From positions 1 to 7,900 of the IMG/VR virus record IMGVR_UViG_2778261030_000021: DNA of 7,900 bases; one strand, given 5' to 3'. Made by a program: the position numbers and the translations under genes. This document shows positions 1,036 to 7,900 of the stretch, one piece after another (within the stretch, counting starts at the first letter, position 1; every line of letters begins with the position of its first letter). The notes beneath the pieces were generated by a model. That model made no database searches and was not told the origin of the DNA. It saw only the letters and a list, made by a program, of their open reading frames with translations. The DNA comes from a virus (lineage: Duplodnaviria; Heunggongvirae; Uroviricota; Caudoviricetes).

Positions 1036-1260
1036 TCAGTCCCTGATCCCTTTCAGAAATTCTATCAATGCATCTATCTGTTCAGGATTTACCGCCAGCA
1101 TTTCACCGGATAGAGCACATCTCACAAAACCATGCTGATCCTTTTCAATCAGTGCGCCCGTCTCCAGGAATGCGCGGTAATCATTGATGCTCATCGTCTC
1201 CATGTTGTCAGCATGGTATTTATCACGCTGTTTTAATATCTCATCAAATTTCATCGGCAT
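1036..1260 (-). CDS. Hypothetical acidic protein, 74 aa
   Basis: ATG at 1260 with AGAGGA about 9 nt upstream; own terminator downstream. No family recognised. Confidence 0.5.
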   Translation of the reverse strand: MPMKFDEILKQRDKYHADNMETMSINDYRAFLETGALIEKDQHGFVRCALSGEMLAVNPEQIDALIEFLKGIRD

Positions 1261-1356
1261 TGTTTTTTTCCTCTGTTGTGTCTGTTTGTTTCAGATAGTA
1301 ACTATGCCTGACCGTGACGAAAACCCGGTAATGCGCCATACCGTTTCAACTGGTGC

Positions 1357-1380
1357 AAAAAAAGCCGGATTTCTCCGGCT
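1357..1380 (-). terminator. Intrinsic terminator after the PerC-like gene; near-identical copy of the 1004-1025 terminator
   Basis: Same AGCCGGATTTCTCCGGCT hairpin (1363-1380) followed on the minus strand by U7 (1357-1363). A 24-bp core is shared between 1004-1027 and 1360-1383. Confidence 0.65.
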
Positions 1381-1386
1381 GTTTGA

Positions 1387-1659
1387 TTAGCTGTCCTGGT
1401 AATTGCGCCATATTTCATCACCAGCACCATCTATACCCATTTCGGCATAAGTGCGATCGACTGCCTTTTTCAGGTCTCCGAAATTATCCGGCGGCTCCGG
1501 TGCCCTCTGTGCCTTCCTTGAACATTCCAGCCGTCGCATCGTGATGTGATGCCGTTCCTTGTCTGTCTCCACCAGCTGCATGACTTCACCCCATCGCGCC
1601 GCCGCCCTCCGGTAAAAGCCTTTCGCCTCCAGTTCCTCCGCTATGCGGTCATGTACCAT
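1387..1659 (-). CDS. PerC-family-like small transcriptional activator, 90 aa (start moved to ATG 1659; the track ORF begins further upstream at a non-ATG codon)
   Basis: MVHDRIAEELEAKGFYRRAAARWGEVM... resembles the AEKLExKGLWRRAA signature I recall for PerC/Pch proteins. Strong SD GAGGGGGGG immediately upstream of ATG 1659. Confidence 0.5.
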   Translation of the reverse strand: MVHDRIAEELEAKGFYRRAAARWGEVMQLVETDKERHHITMRRLECSRKAQRAPEPPDNFGDLKKAVDRTYAEMGIDGAGDEIWRNYQDS

Positions 1660-1669
1660 CGTCCCCCCC

Positions 1670-2080
1670 TCAGAACGAAATATCATCACCGTAAGGGTCA
1701 TCGCCTCCCGCTGGTGGCTGATTACCCTGTGTGCCTGTGGTTTTGCGTCTGTTCCCGCCTGGACGTGCCGCGCGGGCACTGATTACGCTGTCTGCGATAA
1801 CCTGCCAGCCCTGCCGCGTTTCTCCGTTCTGTCCGGCCCACTGGCTTACCTGCATCGTGCCGGATACGCTGGCAACATCGCCTTTTTGATGTTTAGCCAG
1901 GAAGTCGGCCTGTTTGCCAAATGCGATGACCGATAACCATAACGTCGCCTGTCCGTCCTGTGCCTGGCTGCATGGCAACGATACCGCCATACGCGCCAGC
2001 GTCATCGGTGTGCCCTTGCTGGTCTGTTTTACCTGCGGGTCGTCCACCAGCCGCCCGTAAGCGGCTATCTGTGCCGTCAT
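1670..2080 (-). CDS. ssb: Single-stranded DNA-binding protein (SSB-like OB fold), 136 aa
   Basis: Pattern GRLVDDPQV...TLWLSVIAFGKQADFLAKHQKGDVASVSGTMQVSQWAGQNGETRQGWQVIADSV aligns by eye with E. coli SSB (G.L..DPE...W..V.FGK.AE...KG..V..G....W.D.G.R), and the acidic tail DDPYGDDISF resembles the SSB C-terminal DDDIPF tip. ATG 2080 with GAGAGGTGG SD; start overlaps the upstream stop (ATGA). Confidence 0.75.
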   Translation of the reverse strand: MTAQIAAYGRLVDDPQVKQTSKGTPMTLARMAVSLPCSQAQDGQATLWLSVIAFGKQADFLAKHQKGDVASVSGTMQVSQWAGQNGETRQGWQVIADSVISARAARPGGNRRKTTGTQGNQPPAGGDDPYGDDISF

Positions 2081-2322
2081 AATTCCACCTCTCCGGTTTT
2101 AACGTTGATGGTTGTTACCTGTTCCGCTTCGGCAATCTCCCGTTCTGTCAGCGTGGCAAAGTTTGCCGCTGCTGTGGTCATGAATGCGCTTATCAGTTCG
2201 GGATGTGCTTTCGCGTATCCTTCCCCGGCGTTGCGGTCGATGATTTTTATCGCCACCCTCAGCCAGTGTTCTGTCAAATCAAGGGCGTGAGATTGTGGTT
2301 TTTTGGCGTGCTTCGTTGTCAC
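2077..2322 (-). CDS. Hypothetical protein, 81 aa (GTG start)
   Basis: Codon at 2322..2320 is GTG with GAGGT about 9 nt upstream; stop overlaps the ssb start. No family recognised. Confidence 0.45.
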   Translation of the reverse strand: MTTKHAKKPQSHALDLTEHWLRVAIKIIDRNAGEGYAKAHPELISAFMTTAAANFATLTEREIAEAEQVTTINVKTGEVEL

Positions 2323-2609: not shown

Positions 2610-4427
2610 TTAATTTTTTCCATCGTCATTTGTGACCGATGCACATGATGGCATCCAGTCTTCTGAATCCTCTGTCAGGGTCACATTTGAACGCAAACCG
2701 TGCTTCGTTTTCCGTTTCATATACTCCCTGCCATATTCCGCCATTGCCCCCGGCATATCTTTACCGAAGCGCGTCAGTGTTACAGGTTTACCGAATCCGT
2801 GTGCCCTCATATATGCCAGATAGGCGTGATAAAGATACCTGCGCGGACTGAACGGAATAATTTCGGCATTACCCACTAACAGACCATCACACATTACCGA
2901 CGACATGAGATAGCCGCAGAAGTCCACCAGCGAATCGCCCTCGCGTTTTATCACCAGAGCTTCTTCTGATTTCTGCTGCTCATACAGCAGGCGTTTAGCT
3001 TCGTCCTGGTCAGAAAAACGAGTAAGCAGGTGGCGAATCACAACCGCCAGCTCTCCTTCTATTTTTTCTGCCAGCATGGGGTCGCGTTCGTTTTCCGGTA
3101 CAACCTCCGAAAAATTGAATATCACCCGACGACGTGAAATCCCCCCGCTGCGGTCACTGAATGACATGGCGTTATTGTTCACCGCCAACACTACCGCCTG
3201 AATGCGTGTTGAGTAGGGGGCTTTATGCTTCGGGTCGATTGCCACCTTGTCACCGCCTGTAATGGCCTTAATTCCTGCGCCATCACCAGCGTAACGGGTC
3301 ATATCCGGCATGATAATCAGCGAAAAGCCAACCACTAACGCGCGTTCCCTGGCATCTTCCAGCGCCTTCATGCTTGCCGATACCGTGTTGGCCTTACCCG
3401 CCAGCATGGTGCAAATCTCCGCCATCACGCTTTTACCACTTCCCCCTGGACCTGTTACCTCAATGAATAACTGCCAGTCGTACCGGTTCGCCAGCACCAT
3501 GAATAATGCAGCCAGTACGCGATCCGCCTTGCGGTCATTCTCAGCCACCGAACGGCGTAACCACTTCCAGAAATTCGGCGCATGTGTTGCCAGCGTTTCC
3601 CCCTCTGCTGGTGGGCTGAAAGGTAATTCACTGGCAATTAACAACCAGTCGTTTTTGTTATGCTCCCGAAAATTACCTGTTCTGGTATCAAATACCCCGT
3701 TACTGAATCCAATCAGGTTACGGGCTGTATTCCCCATTACAGGCAAACTTAACTTCATGGTATCGACCGCCGATTTAATGGCGTTCTGCGAATAGCTGAT
3801 CTCCGCATCAATGAAAATCTGTGCCATAGCTCGCTGTAATTCTTTATCCTGTACTGGCTCCCATACAACGCCGTTGTAATGGTGAACAGTGTCAGAGTCA
3901 GCATGAATCGCCAGTTCACCGCCATAATGTGCCAGGAGAACTTCGCCGCGTTGACTTGCTCCCATCTGGTTAAGCGCCAGTGATGAAGCGTTATCGTCTT
4001 TTACCCGCTCTTTTTTCTTTACAGGCAGTTCAACTACCTTTTTCTTTTCCGCCTGCTCTGCCCGTTCACGTTCCAGATATTCGCGCCAGTTCTCCCGTTT
4101 CTGGCTGTGCATTCCTTCAGGGTAATAATCAGCATCCCTGACACCTGCCGCTGCCAGTTTCTGCCCGATGGTATTAACAAGCCCCGGACGCAATAACCCC
4201 GCCTGGTAGAGACGCACCCGATAGCGTCCGTCCGGTACGATTTGCAGCTTATCCAGTTCGGCAAGTTGTTGTTCTCCAAGCCAGACAGGAGGCACGCTGT
4301 CGCCAGCCAGTCGCCCGTCCTGTTCCTGCCACTGCTTCGCATGTGCCCACGCATCATTACCCGCAAAAATGATGACTTCCGTCATTTTGTCACGCGGCTG
4401 GTGTTTTAAATTTGGCGCTTTTTTCAT
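2610..4427 (-). CDS. Replication primase-helicase of the P4-alpha / D5 (SF3 helicase) family, 605 aa (start moved from track position 4442 to ATG 4427)
   Basis: Walker A TGPGGSGKS within a D5-like region. The track ORF begins at a GTG (4442); the first ATG (4427..4425, MKKAPNLKHQ...) has GGAGAGAG upstream and overlaps the stop of the preceding gene (ATGA). Confidence 0.85.
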   Translation of the reverse strand: MKKAPNLKHQPRDKMTEVIIFAGNDAWAHAKQWQEQDGRLAGDSVPPVWLGEQQLAELDKLQIVPDGRYRVRLYQAGLLRPGLVNTIGQKLAAAGVRDADYYPEGMHSQKRENWREYLERERAEQAEKKKVVELPVKKKERVKDDNASSLALNQMGASQRGEVLLAHYGGELAIHADSDTVHHYNGVVWEPVQDKELQRAMAQIFIDAEISYSQNAIKSAVDTMKLSLPVMGNTARNLIGFSNGVFDTRTGNFREHNKNDWLLIASELPFSPPAEGETLATHAPNFWKWLRRSVAENDRKADRVLAALFMVLANRYDWQLFIEVTGPGGSGKSVMAEICTMLAGKANTVSASMKALEDARERALVVGFSLIIMPDMTRYAGDGAGIKAITGGDKVAIDPKHKAPYSTRIQAVVLAVNNNAMSFSDRSGGISRRRVIFNFSEVVPENERDPMLAEKIEGELAVVIRHLLTRFSDQDEAKRLLYEQQKSEEALVIKREGDSLVDFCGYLMSSVMCDGLLVGNAEIIPFSPRRYLYHAYLAYMRAHGFGKPVTLTRFGKDMPGAMAEYGREYMKRKTKHGLRSNVTLTEDSEDWMPSCASVTNDDGKN

Positions 4428-4723
4428 TTCTGCTCTCTCCACGCGGCAATCATGTTTTTCAGTTCCTGTAGTTTTTTATCAACATCCATACATGACACAT
4501 GGTTATTTCTGGAAAGCGGGATTTCCCGCCTGAATCTGCTAATAAAGATCTCCACGTTCAGCGAACTATGAAATGAATAGCCATCACGAATAAAATACAC
4601 ACGGTCAAACATCAGTTCTTTTACCGTTACTCTGTTACCGTTCTTATCCAGATAAATAGCGCCGGGGATAATTTTGGGGTGTGCATAACCGCTGGCAGTC
4701 AAGCCAGATAAATACGTTCTCAT
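4424..4723 (-). CDS. Hypothetical protein, 99 aa, translationally coupled to the primase
   Basis: ATG 4723; stop TGA overlaps the primase ATG. No family recognised. Confidence 0.55.
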   Translation of the reverse strand: MRTYLSGLTASGYAHPKIIPGAIYLDKNGNRVTVKELMFDRVYFIRDGYSFHSSLNVEIFISRFRREIPLSRNNHVSCMDVDKKLQELKNMIAAWREQK

Positions 4724-4729
4724 GATTAT

Positions 4730-5050
4730 TTATCTCAGATTTGAATCAGTATTCGCTTTCTCTATGGCATTTAATGCATCTGTGGCATTTTCAATGGTGC
4801 ACCGTAACGAAATATCAAACTGCCCAAGCATTGCCAGTAACAAGCCAATATTACCCATGTCAATGCGCATAGCCTTTTCGTCATATTCCTCATTTTCTGA
4901 CGCATGCCACATCAGGCTACCAATTGACGAAACAGCCATTGATATATTGTCAGTAGCCCCATCCGCAGCGGAATAAACCTTTTTAGCAATATCATGCTCA
5001 CAGTTAAAATGCGGATTAATCAGGTACTGGTAATTGGTCATGTCAGGCAT
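4730..5050 (-). CDS. Hypothetical acidic protein, 106 aa
   Basis: ATG 5050..5048 overlaps the end of the upstream small gene. Strongly acidic composition (about 17 D/E against 7 K/R). Confidence 0.55.
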   Translation of the reverse strand: MPDMTNYQYLINPHFNCEHDIAKKVYSAADGATDNISMAVSSIGSLMWHASENEEYDEKAMRIDMGNIGLLLAMLGQFDISLRCTIENATDALNAIEKANTDSNLR

Positions 5051-5246
5051 GGAACACCCCCTGACGAATACGGGCGGCGAATACCATCACGCAGCCATCA
5101 GGAGATTGCTGACGCGCGTCCTGTTCGCTGGTGGCCTCAATGGTAATCACGCGCGGTTGTGCCGTGCTCAGGGCGATAAAACGCCAGATGTATTTATTCA
5201 GGTTGTGCGAGTCCCGCCCTTGCGGGTGTGTGGTATGATTTAACAT
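5043..5246 (-). CDS. Small first gene of the leftward operon, 67 aa (possibly Icd/Kil-like; function uncertain)
   Basis: ATG 5246..5244 with GAGGT 5-6 nt upstream; MLNHTTHPQGRDSHNLNKYIWRFIALSTAQPRVITIEATSEQDARQQSPDGCVMVFAARIRQGVFHA. It is the C-terminal 67 codons of the 341-aa track ORF, which I reject as a whole. The Icd-like guess rests on position only. Confidence 0.5.
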   Translation of the reverse strand: MLNHTTHPQGRDSHNLNKYIWRFIALSTAQPRVITIEATSEQDARQQSPDGCVMVFAARIRQGVFHA

Positions 5247-5342
5247 AGCTACCTCGATATTCTTGCTATCGTTGGTGGTTAGACGCCCGGTTAGTGTTAG
5301 CGCACTGCCGGGTTTCGTCGTTTCTGCACCTTGCATCAACAA

Positions 5343-5396
5343 GGTGTTTAACACCAATTTAAGCCCTGGTGTTAAACACGTCAAGTGTTGAACACT
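5343..5396. promoter_or_regulatory. Three 13-bp palindromic operator-like sites (G/A)GTGTT-N-AACAC(C/T) in the divergent promoter region
   Basis: Directly read: 5343-5355 GGTGTTTAACACC (perfect), 5368-5380 GGTGTTAAACACG (one mismatch), 5384-5396 AGTGTTGAACACT (perfect). The third overlaps a plus-strand -35-like TTGAAC (5388-5393), with a weak -10 CATACT at 5411-5416. Confidence 0.55.
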
Positions 5397-5445
5397 TATT
5401 TTTTTTCCTGCATACTGCATTTGTTTTTTGTAAGGGGTACACAAC

Positions 5446-5625
5446 ATGGCGACAAAAGCAGTAAACGCAAAATCACAAACAGTTGCGGCAAGGGTTCCGC
5501 ATGAAGTTATGAACAATGTTGAGGCGGTAAAAATGCCTGGTGAAAGTACAGGGCAGTTTGTAACAGCAGCATTAAAGCGAGAAGTTGAATACCGCCAGCG
5601 TCGCAAGGCCAAAGAGCAGGAATAA
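5446..5625 (+). CDS. Small DNA-binding protein, probable ribbon-helix-helix fold, 59 aa
   Basis: Below the track's size cut-off. ATG 5446 with AAGGGG 8 nt upstream; MATKAVNAKSQTVAARVPHEVMNNVEAVKMPGESTGQFVTAALKREVEYRQRRKAKEQE. Beta-strand (TVAARVP), helix, Gly turn, helix pattern typical of Arc/CopG-type proteins. Confidence 0.5.
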   Translation: MATKAVNAKSQTVAARVPHEVMNNVEAVKMPGESTGQFVTAALKREVEYRQRRKAKEQE

Positions 5626-5682
5626 CCATCACCAGCGCCGTGGTGTAAGGTATTACGGCGCATTGCTATGCAGGACAACACA

Positions 5683-5856
5683 ATGACCGATAAAGAATTG
5701 ACCAAAACATTATCACCGGCACGGAAAAGACGGCGCAGAAAGATAGAGCATGAATCAGAAAGATTCGCGCCATGTGCTTTTGCCCTTGAGCAATTCCTTA
5801 AAGAGTACAGGGAAAAGCGCTCATTGCAGGTATGGCAACGAACTGAACCAGACTGA
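5683..5856 (+). CDS. Hypothetical Arg-rich small protein, 57 aa
   Basis: ATG 5683 with AGGA 7 nt upstream (the track's longer ORF starts at 5668). Contains ARKRRRRK; rare AGA/AGG/CGG codons. Confidence 0.4.
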   Translation: MTDKELTKTLSPARKRRRRKIEHESERFAPCAFALEQFLKEYREKRSLQVWQRTEPD

Positions 5857-5950
5857 TAGCATTGCCCACCAGCCTGATAGCGACTATCATTGCCGTTCTT
5901 ATGTTTGGGATCACACACACAAACGGCGCAGCGGGTTATCTGTTCAGAAA

Positions 5951-5979
5951 GGCGGCTCCATTTCGGGGCCGCTTTTTTT
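5951..5979 (+). terminator. Intrinsic terminator of the plus-strand two-gene unit
   Basis: Stem 5952-5959 GCGGCTCC pairs with 5965-5972 GGGGCCGC (one G-U), 5-nt loop, then T7 at 5973-5979. Confidence 0.7.
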
Positions 5980-6120
5980 ATTCCTGAAAAACCCCAATTT
6001 TGTTGTTTTTCAGTTTCACCAGGGCGAACGAATCCCCGCCCACGTTCGGGCGCATATTCAATCTTCATGGTTATATCTCTGTATTAGTGGATGTGTGGCG
6101 GCTGCGTGCCGCCAGCGTGA

Positions 6121-6309
6121 TTAATGAACTGCCTTGCAGCTATCCTTCCAGGCCAGAACCTCGGATAAAGACCAGCCAACGGAACGACCGCCAAGTTTAC
6201 GACGTGATGGGAATTGTCCGGCCTTTTCCAGGCGGTAGCGGCATGAGCGGCTAAGGCCTGTTAGCTTTTCGCATTCTTTTTCACGTATAAACCGATCAGT
6301 GCTTAACAC
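6121..6309 (-). CDS. alpA: AlpA-family phage transcriptional regulator / excisionase-like HTH protein, 62 aa (GTG start)
   Basis: EKLTGLSRSCRYRLEKAGQFPSRRKLGGRSVGWSLSEVLAW matches the AlpA signature I recall (TG.SRST.Y......FP....LG.R.V.W...E...W). GTG at 6309..6307 with AAGGGG 5 nt upstream; no in-frame ATG is available. Confidence 0.8.
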   Translation of the reverse strand: MLSTDRFIREKECEKLTGLSRSCRYRLEKAGQFPSRRKLGGRSVGWSLSEVLAWKDSCKAVH

Positions 6310-6682: not shown

Positions 6683-7900
6683 TTATTTTCTTCTGGCTAC
6701 TGGTAGCGTGGTTACGTTTTCATGTGTTCCCGCCAGTATCCCTAACCGCTCCATCCACATATCCAGCGCATTGCGTTTAGCATCCAGATAACGGGAATGA
6801 TTATAAACTCGCTGCATTCCTGGCATCTGGTGGCCTGTAAGCTGCTCCACGACATGCGGATCAACGCCTAAATCGTTCAGCATGGTTGTAAAGGTGCGCC
6901 GGATGTCATGCAGTGACCAGTGAGGGTGATTAAGCCTCCTGTGCGCTAATCTTCCATACTGCGATACGCTGGCCTCCTGTTTCACTGCCCCCAGCAATAA
7001 GCCCGTGTGCCTGTTCTGCTCCACCAGCTGCGTGACGAACGGCAGGATCGCTTCCGGTATGGGCCGGAATATTGCGACCTTCGTTTTGCTGTGCTCCTTC
7101 GGAACGGTCCATAGCATTTCCGTAAAATCCCACTCCCCGATCTCTGATAACCTCAGTTCTACCGTTCTGGCTCCGAAGACAATCAGGAGGCGGATTAACG
7201 CGACGTAGTAAGGGGAAAATATTTTTTTATCCAGCGCCTGCAATAACTCGCCCAGTTCTTTGGTGCTTAAGACACGTTCGCTTATATCCGGTTTTTTCCC
7301 AACGTCCGCCACGTTCAGATCGTCCAGAACGTTGCTGATTGCATAGCGCCGCCTACGGCAGAACTTAAGCGCCTGTTTGCACGCCTGTAGCACGAATCCG
7401 GCAGTAACAGGCGTTCGCTTTGCCACCTGGTCAAAACAGGCCAGCCAGTGCCGTAGCTCGCATTTATCCAGCGGCATAGCACCAATCTGCTGTATTACGT
7501 GATTATTAAGTCGCCTTTTCAGGGCGATATAATCCACGCGGTTTTCCTTTACGTAAGACTCAAGCCAGTAGGTGAGCGCATCGCCAACCGTTACGGGCTT
7601 TAACGCTTCCTGTACGGTGTAATTCATCTCATGACGTGGATTTTTCCCCTCAGCCAGCCATGCGCGGCACTGGGCGGCTTTTTCCCTGGCTGCTTTCAGA
7701 CTCAGATCAGGATAATTTCCCAGCTTAATACGTTCCGGTCGTGTCTCTCTTCCCGTTCCTGCCCTGTAAGTGAAATACCAGGTTAATTTCCCTGATGTTA
7801 AATATTTCACGCTCAGATTTCCGCCATCGCTATAAAACGTGTTTTTCTCCGCTGGCTTACCATGAAGTTTCCTTAGCAATGTGTCGCTCAGTTTGTTCAT
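6683..7900 (-). CDS. int: Tyrosine recombinase / phage integrase (P4-type), 405 aa
   Basis: 405-aa ORF starting with ATG exactly at the window edge (the true start could lie upstream). Integrase-like C-terminal region including HDIRRTFTT and the tail ...MQRVYNHSRYLDAKRNALDMW with candidate catalytic Tyr. Confidence 0.88.
   Translation of the reverse strand: MNKLSDTLLRKLHGKPAEKNTFYSDGGNLSVKYLTSGKLTWYFTYRAGTGRETRPERIKLGNYPDLSLKAAREKAAQCRAWLAEGKNPRHEMNYTVQEALKPVTVGDALTYWLESYVKENRVDYIALKRRLNNHVIQQIGAMPLDKCELRHWLACFDQVAKRTPVTAGFVLQACKQALKFCRRRRYAISNVLDDLNVADVGKKPDISERVLSTKELGELLQALDKKIFSPYYVALIRLLIVFGARTVELRLSEIGEWDFTEMLWTVPKEHSKTKVAIFRPIPEAILPFVTQLVEQNRHTGLLLGAVKQEASVSQYGRLAHRRLNHPHWSLHDIRRTFTTMLNDLGVDPHVVEQLTGHQMPGMQRVYNHSRYLDAKRNALDMWMERLGILAGTHENVTTLPVARRK

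Follow-up and report, generated by a model that had tools for sequence, protein, structure and literature searches.

Introduction

The closest described relative of the locus analyzed here is EcCIEDL933 of Escherichia coli O157:H7, the prototype of the capsid-forming PICIs (cf-PICIs). It is induced by a helper phage and is transferred in PICI capsids with helper tails (bioRxiv 10.1101/2022.09.08.507074). EcCIEDL933 is the same island as O-island 51 (OI-51), CP-933C, and Sakai Sp7 (PMC3378721), and the published contents of OI-51 list a putative ssDNA-binding protein and PchE (Flockhart et al. 2012, PMC3378721). In O157:H7, RNA-seq and 5'-RACE revealed a polycistronic RNA over ECs1586, ECs1587, and pchE (Andreozzi et al. 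2020, PMC7369912), and its 5' end is a G located 10 nt upstream of ECs1586 (PMC7369912). The steady-state expression of pchE is low in uninduced O157:H7 and drops upon SOS induction (PMC6265319, PMC7369912). For EcCICFT073, the cloned rep gene and ori are enough for plasmid maintenance (PMC6092414).

Some E. coli PICIs encode PerC variants (Fillol-Salom et al. 2018). The group 1 Pch proteins (PchA/B/C) relieve silencing by H-NS, StpA, Hha, and YdgT (PMC4764244). Anti-H-NS action has been demonstrated for group 1 Pch only, not for PchE. Overexpression of PchE lowers csgD/curli and biofilm formation, raises flhDC/fliC and motility, and reduces adhesion; these phenotypes come mostly from plasmid overexpression, and the effects on deletion are small (PMC6265319, PMC7369912). 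The PchE type is reported as not activating LEE1 (Porter 2005, cited in PMC11773190; PMC6265319), LEE1 fusions were unaffected by the PICI PerC homologues of EDL933 and CFT073, and LEE expression does not need the group 2 and 3 Pch proteins (PMC11773190, PMC6265319).

Results

The window is part of a capsid-forming PICI

We analyzed a stretch of 7,900 nt, hereafter the window, in which all genes of the ORF list lie on the minus strand. The ORF list and the profile searches placed int at 6683-7900 and alpA at 6121-6309. The pri-rep gene (2610-4442), directly upstream of the origin, encodes a primase/helicase that matches the D5_N, DUF5906, Pox_D5, and P4-family primase C-terminal domain profiles. 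The repeat search revealed an iteron replication origin at 2370-2602, between the primase-helicase gene and the operon, with copies of GGTGAACAG / CTGTTCACC in both orientations around an AT-rich core. This organization agrees with that of the PICI origins (PMC6092414). The Rfam search returned only sub-threshold 'miRNA' matches, which were caused by the inverted iterons. At the other end of the window, an HK97-type major capsid gene (744-1, PF05065) is cut by the window end, so that its N-terminal part, the first 248 codons, is present.

The matches of the 1.65-kb region were confined to E. coli chromosomes, the best being strain 10153 at 99.7% identity. No phage genome gave a megablast match to this region, which is consistent with a satellite and not a phage. 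The 10153 island sits within a split tqsA gene. It starts with int, alpA, an icd-like gene, DUF4222, the primase gene, the 81-aa gene, ssb, perC, and the 74-aa gene, and continues with the HK97-type major capsid, protease, portal, head closure, connector, HNH, TerS, and TerL genes. Parts of the window are common in the species: 1943 of 5426 complete E. coli genomes, about a third, match some part of it.

Two features that define cf-PICIs were found. First, int, alpA, and pri-rep, then the iteron ori, follow one another in a single transcription direction. Second, the 10153 island has its own full set of capsid and packaging genes and is devoid of tail or lysis genes, with no further genes between the tqsA halves. 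The window is part of a cf-PICI of the EcCIEDL933 / O-island 51 / Sakai Sp7 type, and the architecture bears out the earlier view of the element as a phage satellite.

Organization and transcription signals of the operon

Three genes follow the origin on the minus strand, and about 45 nt separate the last GGTGAACAG iteron from the start of the block. The first, at 2077-2322, was identified by its ORF and its PHROG match (phrog_1231); it encodes the 81-aa orthologue of ECs1586 and starts with GTG, which is replaced by ATG at the identical start position in relatives. The second, ssb (1670-2080), encodes a 136-aa bacterial-type SSB (PF00436, TIGR00621), and its start overlaps the stop codon of the 81-aa gene in an ATGA, seen as TCAT at 2077-2080 on the plus strand. 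The third, at 1387-1659, begins with an ATG at 1659 after a 10-nt gap (1660-1669) and encodes a 90-aa PerC-family protein (PF06069) of the PchE type (group 3 Pch). A 130-aa form of this ORF, starting with GTG at 1779, was rejected because it overlaps ssb and because the Pfam match covers exactly the 90-aa form. The coordinates in the preliminary description, which had noted three tightly packed genes downstream of the origin with an ATGA overlap and a 10-nt gap, were exact.

An intrinsic terminator ends the operon at 1357-1380 on the minus strand. It was located by the terminator scan and by inspection of the sequence; it consists of the stem AGCCGGAGAAATCCGGCT followed by TTTTTT, and the G+C hairpin begins 6 nt past the PerC stop codon. 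The 74-aa gene (1036-1260, minus strand; the ECs1589 orthologue, phrog_1957) follows this terminator, and the repeat search found the hairpin a second time at 1008-1025, beyond the 74-aa gene.

The consensus promoter scan called no minus-strand promoter upstream of the operon. Reading the sequence by eye, we noted a candidate weak sigma-70-like promoter that is non-canonical and would, together with the operon 5' end, occupy 2332-2365 on the minus strand. It has a -35 element TTGAAA (2365-2360) that abuts the last iteron (2382-2366), a 16-nt spacer, and a -10 element TATTGC (2343-2338). The operon 5' end is expected at about 2332-2334, which agrees in its distance from the start codon with the RACE end in Sakai. 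Over the promoter stretch, the window and Sakai have unrelated ori types, and the RACE analogy crosses different ori types. The terminator scan found no terminator-like site on the minus strand from 2610 to 2322, i.e., from the primase stop to the 81-aa start. A transcript that starts at alpA can therefore continue past pri-rep into the operon.

The gene order recurs in Sakai Sp7 and in more than 100 IMG/VR contigs, with PerC directly after ssb in 22 of 121 sequence versions. The pairwise dN/dS among related loci was 0.22 for the 81-aa gene, 0.18 for ssb, 0.25 for perC, and 0.14 for the 74-aa gene. All three operon genes are under purifying selection, and the three-gene arrangement is not due to chance. 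The proposal that the block is an operon is supported by the tight packing and the terminator in the window and by the polycistronic RNA detected by RACE in O157:H7 (PMC7369912).

The 81-aa gene is constantly paired with ssb, and PerC occupies an exchangeable slot

The SSB matched PF00436 with 60.1 bits (cutoff 26, E=2.5e-16, residues 5-99) and TIGR00621 with 56.8 bits (cutoff 53.95). It also matched phrog_44 and, in the PDB sequence search, 25 solved SSBs. The 136-aa protein comprises an OB fold, a short linker, and an acidic C-terminal tip ending in GDDISF. A D-x-I-P-F tip is present in 136 of about 156 related island SSBs; the window allele, DDISF, has Ser for the penultimate Pro, and this form was carried by four sequences, namely the window, strain 10153, and two IMG/VR loci. 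A Pro-to-Ser change at this position is that of E. coli ssb-113, which weakens partner binding, and the ISF tip of the window SSB may likewise bind partners more weakly than an IPF tip.

The preliminary description had proposed a co-occurrence analysis across satellites. We collected 160 IMG/VR loci with the 81-aa motif pattern and screened their ORFs using profiles of the window proteins. The gene directly after the 81-aa gene was ssb in 118 of 121 distinct sequence versions, and the 4-nt overlap was kept at 127 of the 147 loci with ssb directly downstream. PerC directly followed ssb in 22 of the 121 versions (about 18%); it was found elsewhere in 2 and was absent from 94 within the available 6-7 kb. 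Among the islands devoid of PerC, ssb was followed either by a 75-aa gene and then a 629-aa protease-capsid fusion or by capsid proteins of 351, 375, or 404 aa and their partners. Given 118 of 121 as against 22 of 121, the 81-aa gene and ssb are a fixed pair attached to the ori, and PerC sits in an exchangeable slot. PerC is an optional cargo, not a core satellite function. The co-occurrence survey sustains the pairing of the 81-aa gene with ssb and not the association with PerC, which the preliminary description had taken for a plausible device for cross-activating helper or host genes. The near-universal presence of ssb next to the ori also fits the replication-accessory role that had been proposed for the SSB.

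These counts bear on the idea that the operon is a defence or anti-defence cassette, for example one in which the SSB is a decoy against SSB-sensing immunity, or one that interferes with the helper phage. Satellites often carry such cargo, and the authors of the cf-PICI work expect immune systems in the variable regions flanking the packaging module. However, ssb and the 81-aa gene are a conserved core rather than variable cargo, the SSB is of the canonical bacterial type, most of its relatives have the usual tip, and none of the proteins had a PADLOC match. We consider a defence function highly improbable.

The PerC-family protein is of the PchE type

The PerC-family protein matched PF06069 with 146.1 bits (cutoff 22.6, E=3.9e-43), residues 1-89 aligning to positions 1-89 of the 90-position profile. 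Together with the PF00436 match of the SSB, this upholds both family assignments made earlier from the letters. The protein is 90% identical to Sakai PchE (ECs1588) and about 42% identical to the plasmid PerC-family genes; by sequence it belongs to the PchE subgroup and not to group 1 Pch/PerC. Membership of the ANR (AraC negative regulator) family was rejected, as the NF033650 match was distant and below the cutoff (20.4 bits against a cutoff of 32, E=3.3e-4, residues 7-52 only).

The AlphaFold2 model of the protein is all-alpha with five helices (pLDDT 84). The fold search with this model gave only insignificant TPR/MIT-like helical matches and no DNA-binding fold, and the PDB sequence search gave no meaningful match. 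The predicted fold would fit a mode of action that involves protein partners or nucleoid proteins, but proves nothing in this respect.

We considered whether the island uses the PerC-like protein as its late activator, one that relieves silencing or termination for the downstream capsid and packaging module. Its gene directly precedes the 74-aa gene and the capsid module, and two terminator-like hairpins are found in between; its group 1 relatives anti-silence H-NS-bound horizontally acquired DNA (PMC4764244); and the profile searches made no other dedicated late regulator evident in the window. The survey of islands points the other way, since only 22 of 121 have PerC after ssb and many capsid-forming relatives have none within 6-7 kb, whereas PICIs devoid of capsid genes, EcCICFT073 and EcCIMP1, do carry PerC. 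In addition, pchE is expressed without induction and falls on SOS induction, and the reproduction of EcCIEDL933 is driven by alpA overexpression, which has been used for this purpose. A late-activator function is quite improbable in our judgement, although in those islands that do have PerC the protein may contribute to late expression.

The function of PerC proteins as activators of virulence regulons did not carry over to this member either. The PchE type is reported to leave LEE1 without activation, to repress csgD/curli, and to raise flhDC/fliC, and the PerC of EcCIMP1 represses LEE1. With a presence in about 18% of the related islands, PerC is not a general satellite device. We favor reading PerC in these satellites as a passenger that modulates the host and takes no part in the life cycle of the satellite.

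The 81-aa protein belongs to a widespread family

The 81-aa protein matched phrog_1231 (E=3.9e-50). Pfam and NCBIfam have no family for it, and a Pfam scan of 71 members likewise returned none. An exhaustive HMMER search (E<=1e-3) gathered a family of 199 clusters at 50% identity. In the 71-member alignment, I28, D29, G33, G35, A37, H40, P41, and L43 are near-invariant. They define the motif IDxxxGxGYAKxHPEL, of which the window protein carries GEGYAKAHPEL in its loop. AlphaFold2 predicts a two-helix hairpin (helices 9-32 and 41-76, mean pLDDT 85.8) with the motif in the loop. The possibility that the ORF is spurious was rejected on the basis of the 199-cluster family and the dN/dS of 0.22. 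The ORF is conserved as coding, as the earlier account had supposed, and the 81-aa gene is a real conserved gene.

Searches for a function were less productive. Apart from uncharacterised phage proteins, the fold searches with the model (PDB, BFVD) yielded only helical matches that were not significant, and the PDB sequence search gave no match; no fold or family match hinting at DNA or helicase binding was found. In the literature searched, ECs1586 is mentioned only by the RACE paper (PMC7369912). In other integrative elements, genes of distant homologues (about 40% identity) directly follow alpA and precede a DUF927 primase-helicase gene, and a Methylovulum phage-like region has one close to a primase; most contigs with distant homologues were too short for an informative reading of gene context. 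The scan of species-representative genomes with the 81-aa protein returned two loci only.

A joint between replication-module types lies within the 81-aa gene

The 81-aa gene abuts the last iteron in all four unrelated iteron types, GGTGAACAG, GGTAGACAAGG, AAGTGGGCA, and ATAACCCGC. In a set of 123 distinct primase / 81-aa / ssb triples, from which the locus pairs are non-independent, the identity of the 81-aa protein correlated with that of the primase (Spearman 0.62) and hardly with that of the SSB (0.17), despite the overlap with ssb.

The preliminary description had suggested by position that the 81-aa protein could be a copy-number or alpha-interacting factor. These observations raise the possibility of an ori-specific partnership with Pri-Rep, in which the 81-aa protein would be a loading, copy-control, or SSB-coupling adaptor with helix 1 matched to the Rep/iteron type. 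The tracking of the primase type rather than the ssb allele, the place of the gene next to four kinds of iterons, the distant homologues in alpA-primase operons or beside the Methylovulum primase, the strongly conserved motif, and the confident model all speak for such a partnership. Aligning the window with Sp7, however, offered a simpler account of the covariation. The primase, the ori, and the 5' third of the 81-aa gene show no homology; homology reaches 80% at 2248-2189 and is then 90-100% through most of the capsid-gene segment. The joint between the replication-module types therefore lies inside the 81-aa gene (about 2190-2250), at the conserved motif. Because such a joint links the 5' third of the gene to the ori, it largely explains the covariation of the 81-aa protein with the primase. 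The position of the joint fits a simple linkage of helix 1 to the ori and a functional matching of helix 1 to Rep/ori alike.

Three further points weigh against an ori-specific Pri-Rep partner: the non-independence of the locus pairs in the covariation, the lack of any fold or family match pointing to DNA or helicase binding, and the replication of EcCICFT073 with Rep and ori alone (PMC6092414). As rep and ori suffice in EcCICFT073, the SSB and the 81-aa protein are accessory, not essential, to ori firing. On balance, we regard an ori-specific Pri-Rep partner as doubtful.

A broader version makes the 81-aa protein a core component of PICI-type replication modules, with helix 1 matched to Rep and the iterons, the loop and helix 2 going with the SSB, and the core of the gene serving as the recombination joint. 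It would describe the protein as a helical-hairpin adaptor whose invariant loop has the co-translated SSB as its partner, and the islands would swap replication modules through the conserved core of the 81-aa gene. We hold this version to be unlikely.

Discussion

We think it probable that the block is the known cf-PICI operon, in which the 81-aa protein and the SSB serve the replication module and PchE is an exchangeable host-modulating cargo. The assignment to the replication module is based on the 81-aa gene abutting the last iteron, on ssb being the next gene in 118 of 121 versions, on the IPF tips, and on the distant homologues in alpA-primase operons. PerC is regarded as cargo because of its 22/121 adjacency, the passage from ssb straight to capsid modules in other islands, the PchE phenotypes, and the anti-H-NS mechanism of the Pch proteins.

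The operon might work as follows. The SSB would coat the ssDNA that becomes exposed as Pri-Rep opens the ori, and its acidic C-terminal tip would engage host replisome proteins; the island-encoded SSB could provide an extra supply for the runaway replication that follows AlpA induction. The 81-aa hairpin protein would be made in a fixed ratio with the SSB and would act with the Pri-Rep/ori/SSB set. The PchE-type PerC would act on host gene expression (curli down, flagella up) and not on the island's own cycle, probably by modulating nucleoid-protein silencing as PchA/B/C do. Read-through of the AlpA-driven transcript could add to operon expression on induction.

The gene identities, the operon, and the satellite nature of the element in the preliminary description stand; the activator or device role of PerC does not, and all but the 81-aa family had already been published. 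For annotation, the block is settled as the ssb-pchE operon of an OI-51-type capsid-forming PICI. The conserved and widespread small protein ahead of ssb is an uncharacterised partner of satellite replication modules.

Comparison with known systems

The window SSB has in common with the chromosomal SSB of E. coli and the plasmid and phage SSBs the OB-fold family, the short linker, and the acidic tip. It is shorter than the E. coli protein (136 versus 178 aa) and distant from it (about 29 bits), and it has Ser instead of the penultimate Pro. Unlike the E. coli gene, the window ssb adjoins a satellite ori and is translationally coupled to the gene of the small 81-aa protein.

EPEC PerC and the group 1 proteins PchA/B/C of EHEC are, like the window PerC, full-length PF06069 matches, small, all-alpha, and borne on mobile elements. 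The two types differ in action, in that anti-H-NS action is shown for group 1 PerC/Pch, whereas the PchE type is reported to act on csgD and flhDC and not to activate LEE1. EcCIMP1_025 of the PICI EcCIMP1 is another PerC-family cargo gene in an E. coli PICI. Its authors noted a weak ANR-family resemblance, and the window PerC has the same sub-cutoff match. EcCIMP1_025 has about 40% identity to the PICI PerC proteins of EDL933 and CFT073 and silences LEE1 in Citrobacter rodentium (PMC11773190).

The closest system is the ECs1586-ECs1587(ssb)-pchE operon of Sp7/OI-51/CP-933C (EcCIEDL933) in E. coli O157:H7, whose gene order and spacing are identical in the window. In Sp7, as in the window, pchE is followed by the 74-aa gene (ECs1589) and then by the HK97-type capsid module. 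At the protein level, identity to the Sakai counterparts is 76% for ECs1586, 97% for ECs1587, and 90% for PchE, and the DNA is 92-100% identical from the middle of the 81-aa gene on. The differences lie in several places. The Sp7 iterons are ATAACCCGC and those of the window GGTGAACAG; the Pri-Rep type differs, with primase homology over about 20% of the length; and over its first third the 81-aa protein departs from ECs1586 in step with the ori/Pri-Rep type. The SSB tip is ISF in the window and IPF in ECs1587, and the island of the nearest genome is in tqsA, whereas Sp7 lies next to roxA/phoQ. The feature is already known and represents another allele of the Sp7/OI-51 operon, one that is joined to a different replication module. 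What is new here is the description of the 81-aa family, which is broad and unannotated, with its constant place between the last iteron and ssb and the optional nature of PerC; the remainder is already published.

Exchange of modules at the two ends of the operon

We compared the window with Sp7, the related element of E. coli O157:H7 Sakai, and found that homology breaks off inside the 81-aa gene (2322-2077, minus strand), at about position 2190-2250. The two elements are unrelated in the primase gene, in the ori and over the first third of the 81-aa gene; downstream of the break the identity is 92-100% throughout. On this alignment, the conserved core of the 81-aa gene is the predicted joint that links exchangeable replication modules to the remaining island.

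The slot 3' of ssb was also variable. Related IMG/VR loci (L006-L084) fill it with alternative modules, which lie downstream of the 81-aa gene at a distance of 0.4-2.5 kb. One consists of a 75-aa gene followed by a 629-aa fusion of a ClpP-like protease and a capsid protein; others encode capsid proteins of 351, 375 or 404 aa together with partners of 113 and 127 aa. The same primase/81-aa/ssb core is therefore combined with several distinct capsid modules.

In the window, the stretch from the operon to the capsid gene contains two 27-nt hairpin/terminator copies (1004-1030 and 1359-1385), 96% alike, which flank the 74-aa gene (1036-1260) on either side. The pair could act as a gate on transcription of the capsid module, or it could mark the boundary of a cassette.

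Genes of the operon and fold of the ori

A PerC product 100% identical to that of the window is encoded on two large E. coli plasmids of 171 and 187 kb (CP061267.1, 161329-161598; NZ_CP031350.1, 36408-36677). These copies suggest that plasmids can harbour all or part of the island. The 42-aa hypothetical protein annotated by RefSeq at 1302-1430 (minus strand) spans the terminator hairpin, overlaps the 3' end of the PerC gene and is probably a spurious call.

The window SSB ends in GDDISF (1670-1687), an allele shared with E. coli 10153, compared with an IPF tip in 136 of the approximately 156 related island SSBs. The penultimate proline is replaced by serine, the change known from E. coli ssb-113.

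Rfam "miRNA precursor" matches at 2392-2569 were sub-threshold and were rejected as an artefact of repeat symmetry, since the inverted iterons of the ori fold there as a long hairpin.

Genes upstream of the primase

A 341-aa ORF (5043-6068, minus strand) overlaps the opposite-strand YlcI/YnfO-family gene (5446-5625, plus strand) and the icd-like gene region; in the nearest genome, the RefSeq call there is a truncated pseudogene. Directly upstream of the primase lies a DUF4222 gene (4424-4723, minus strand). In Sp7, this position is held by RgdR (ECs1581), a published regulator of LEE and motility. The two products are only 31% identical, and the RGD motif is absent from the window product, which has IPG in its place.
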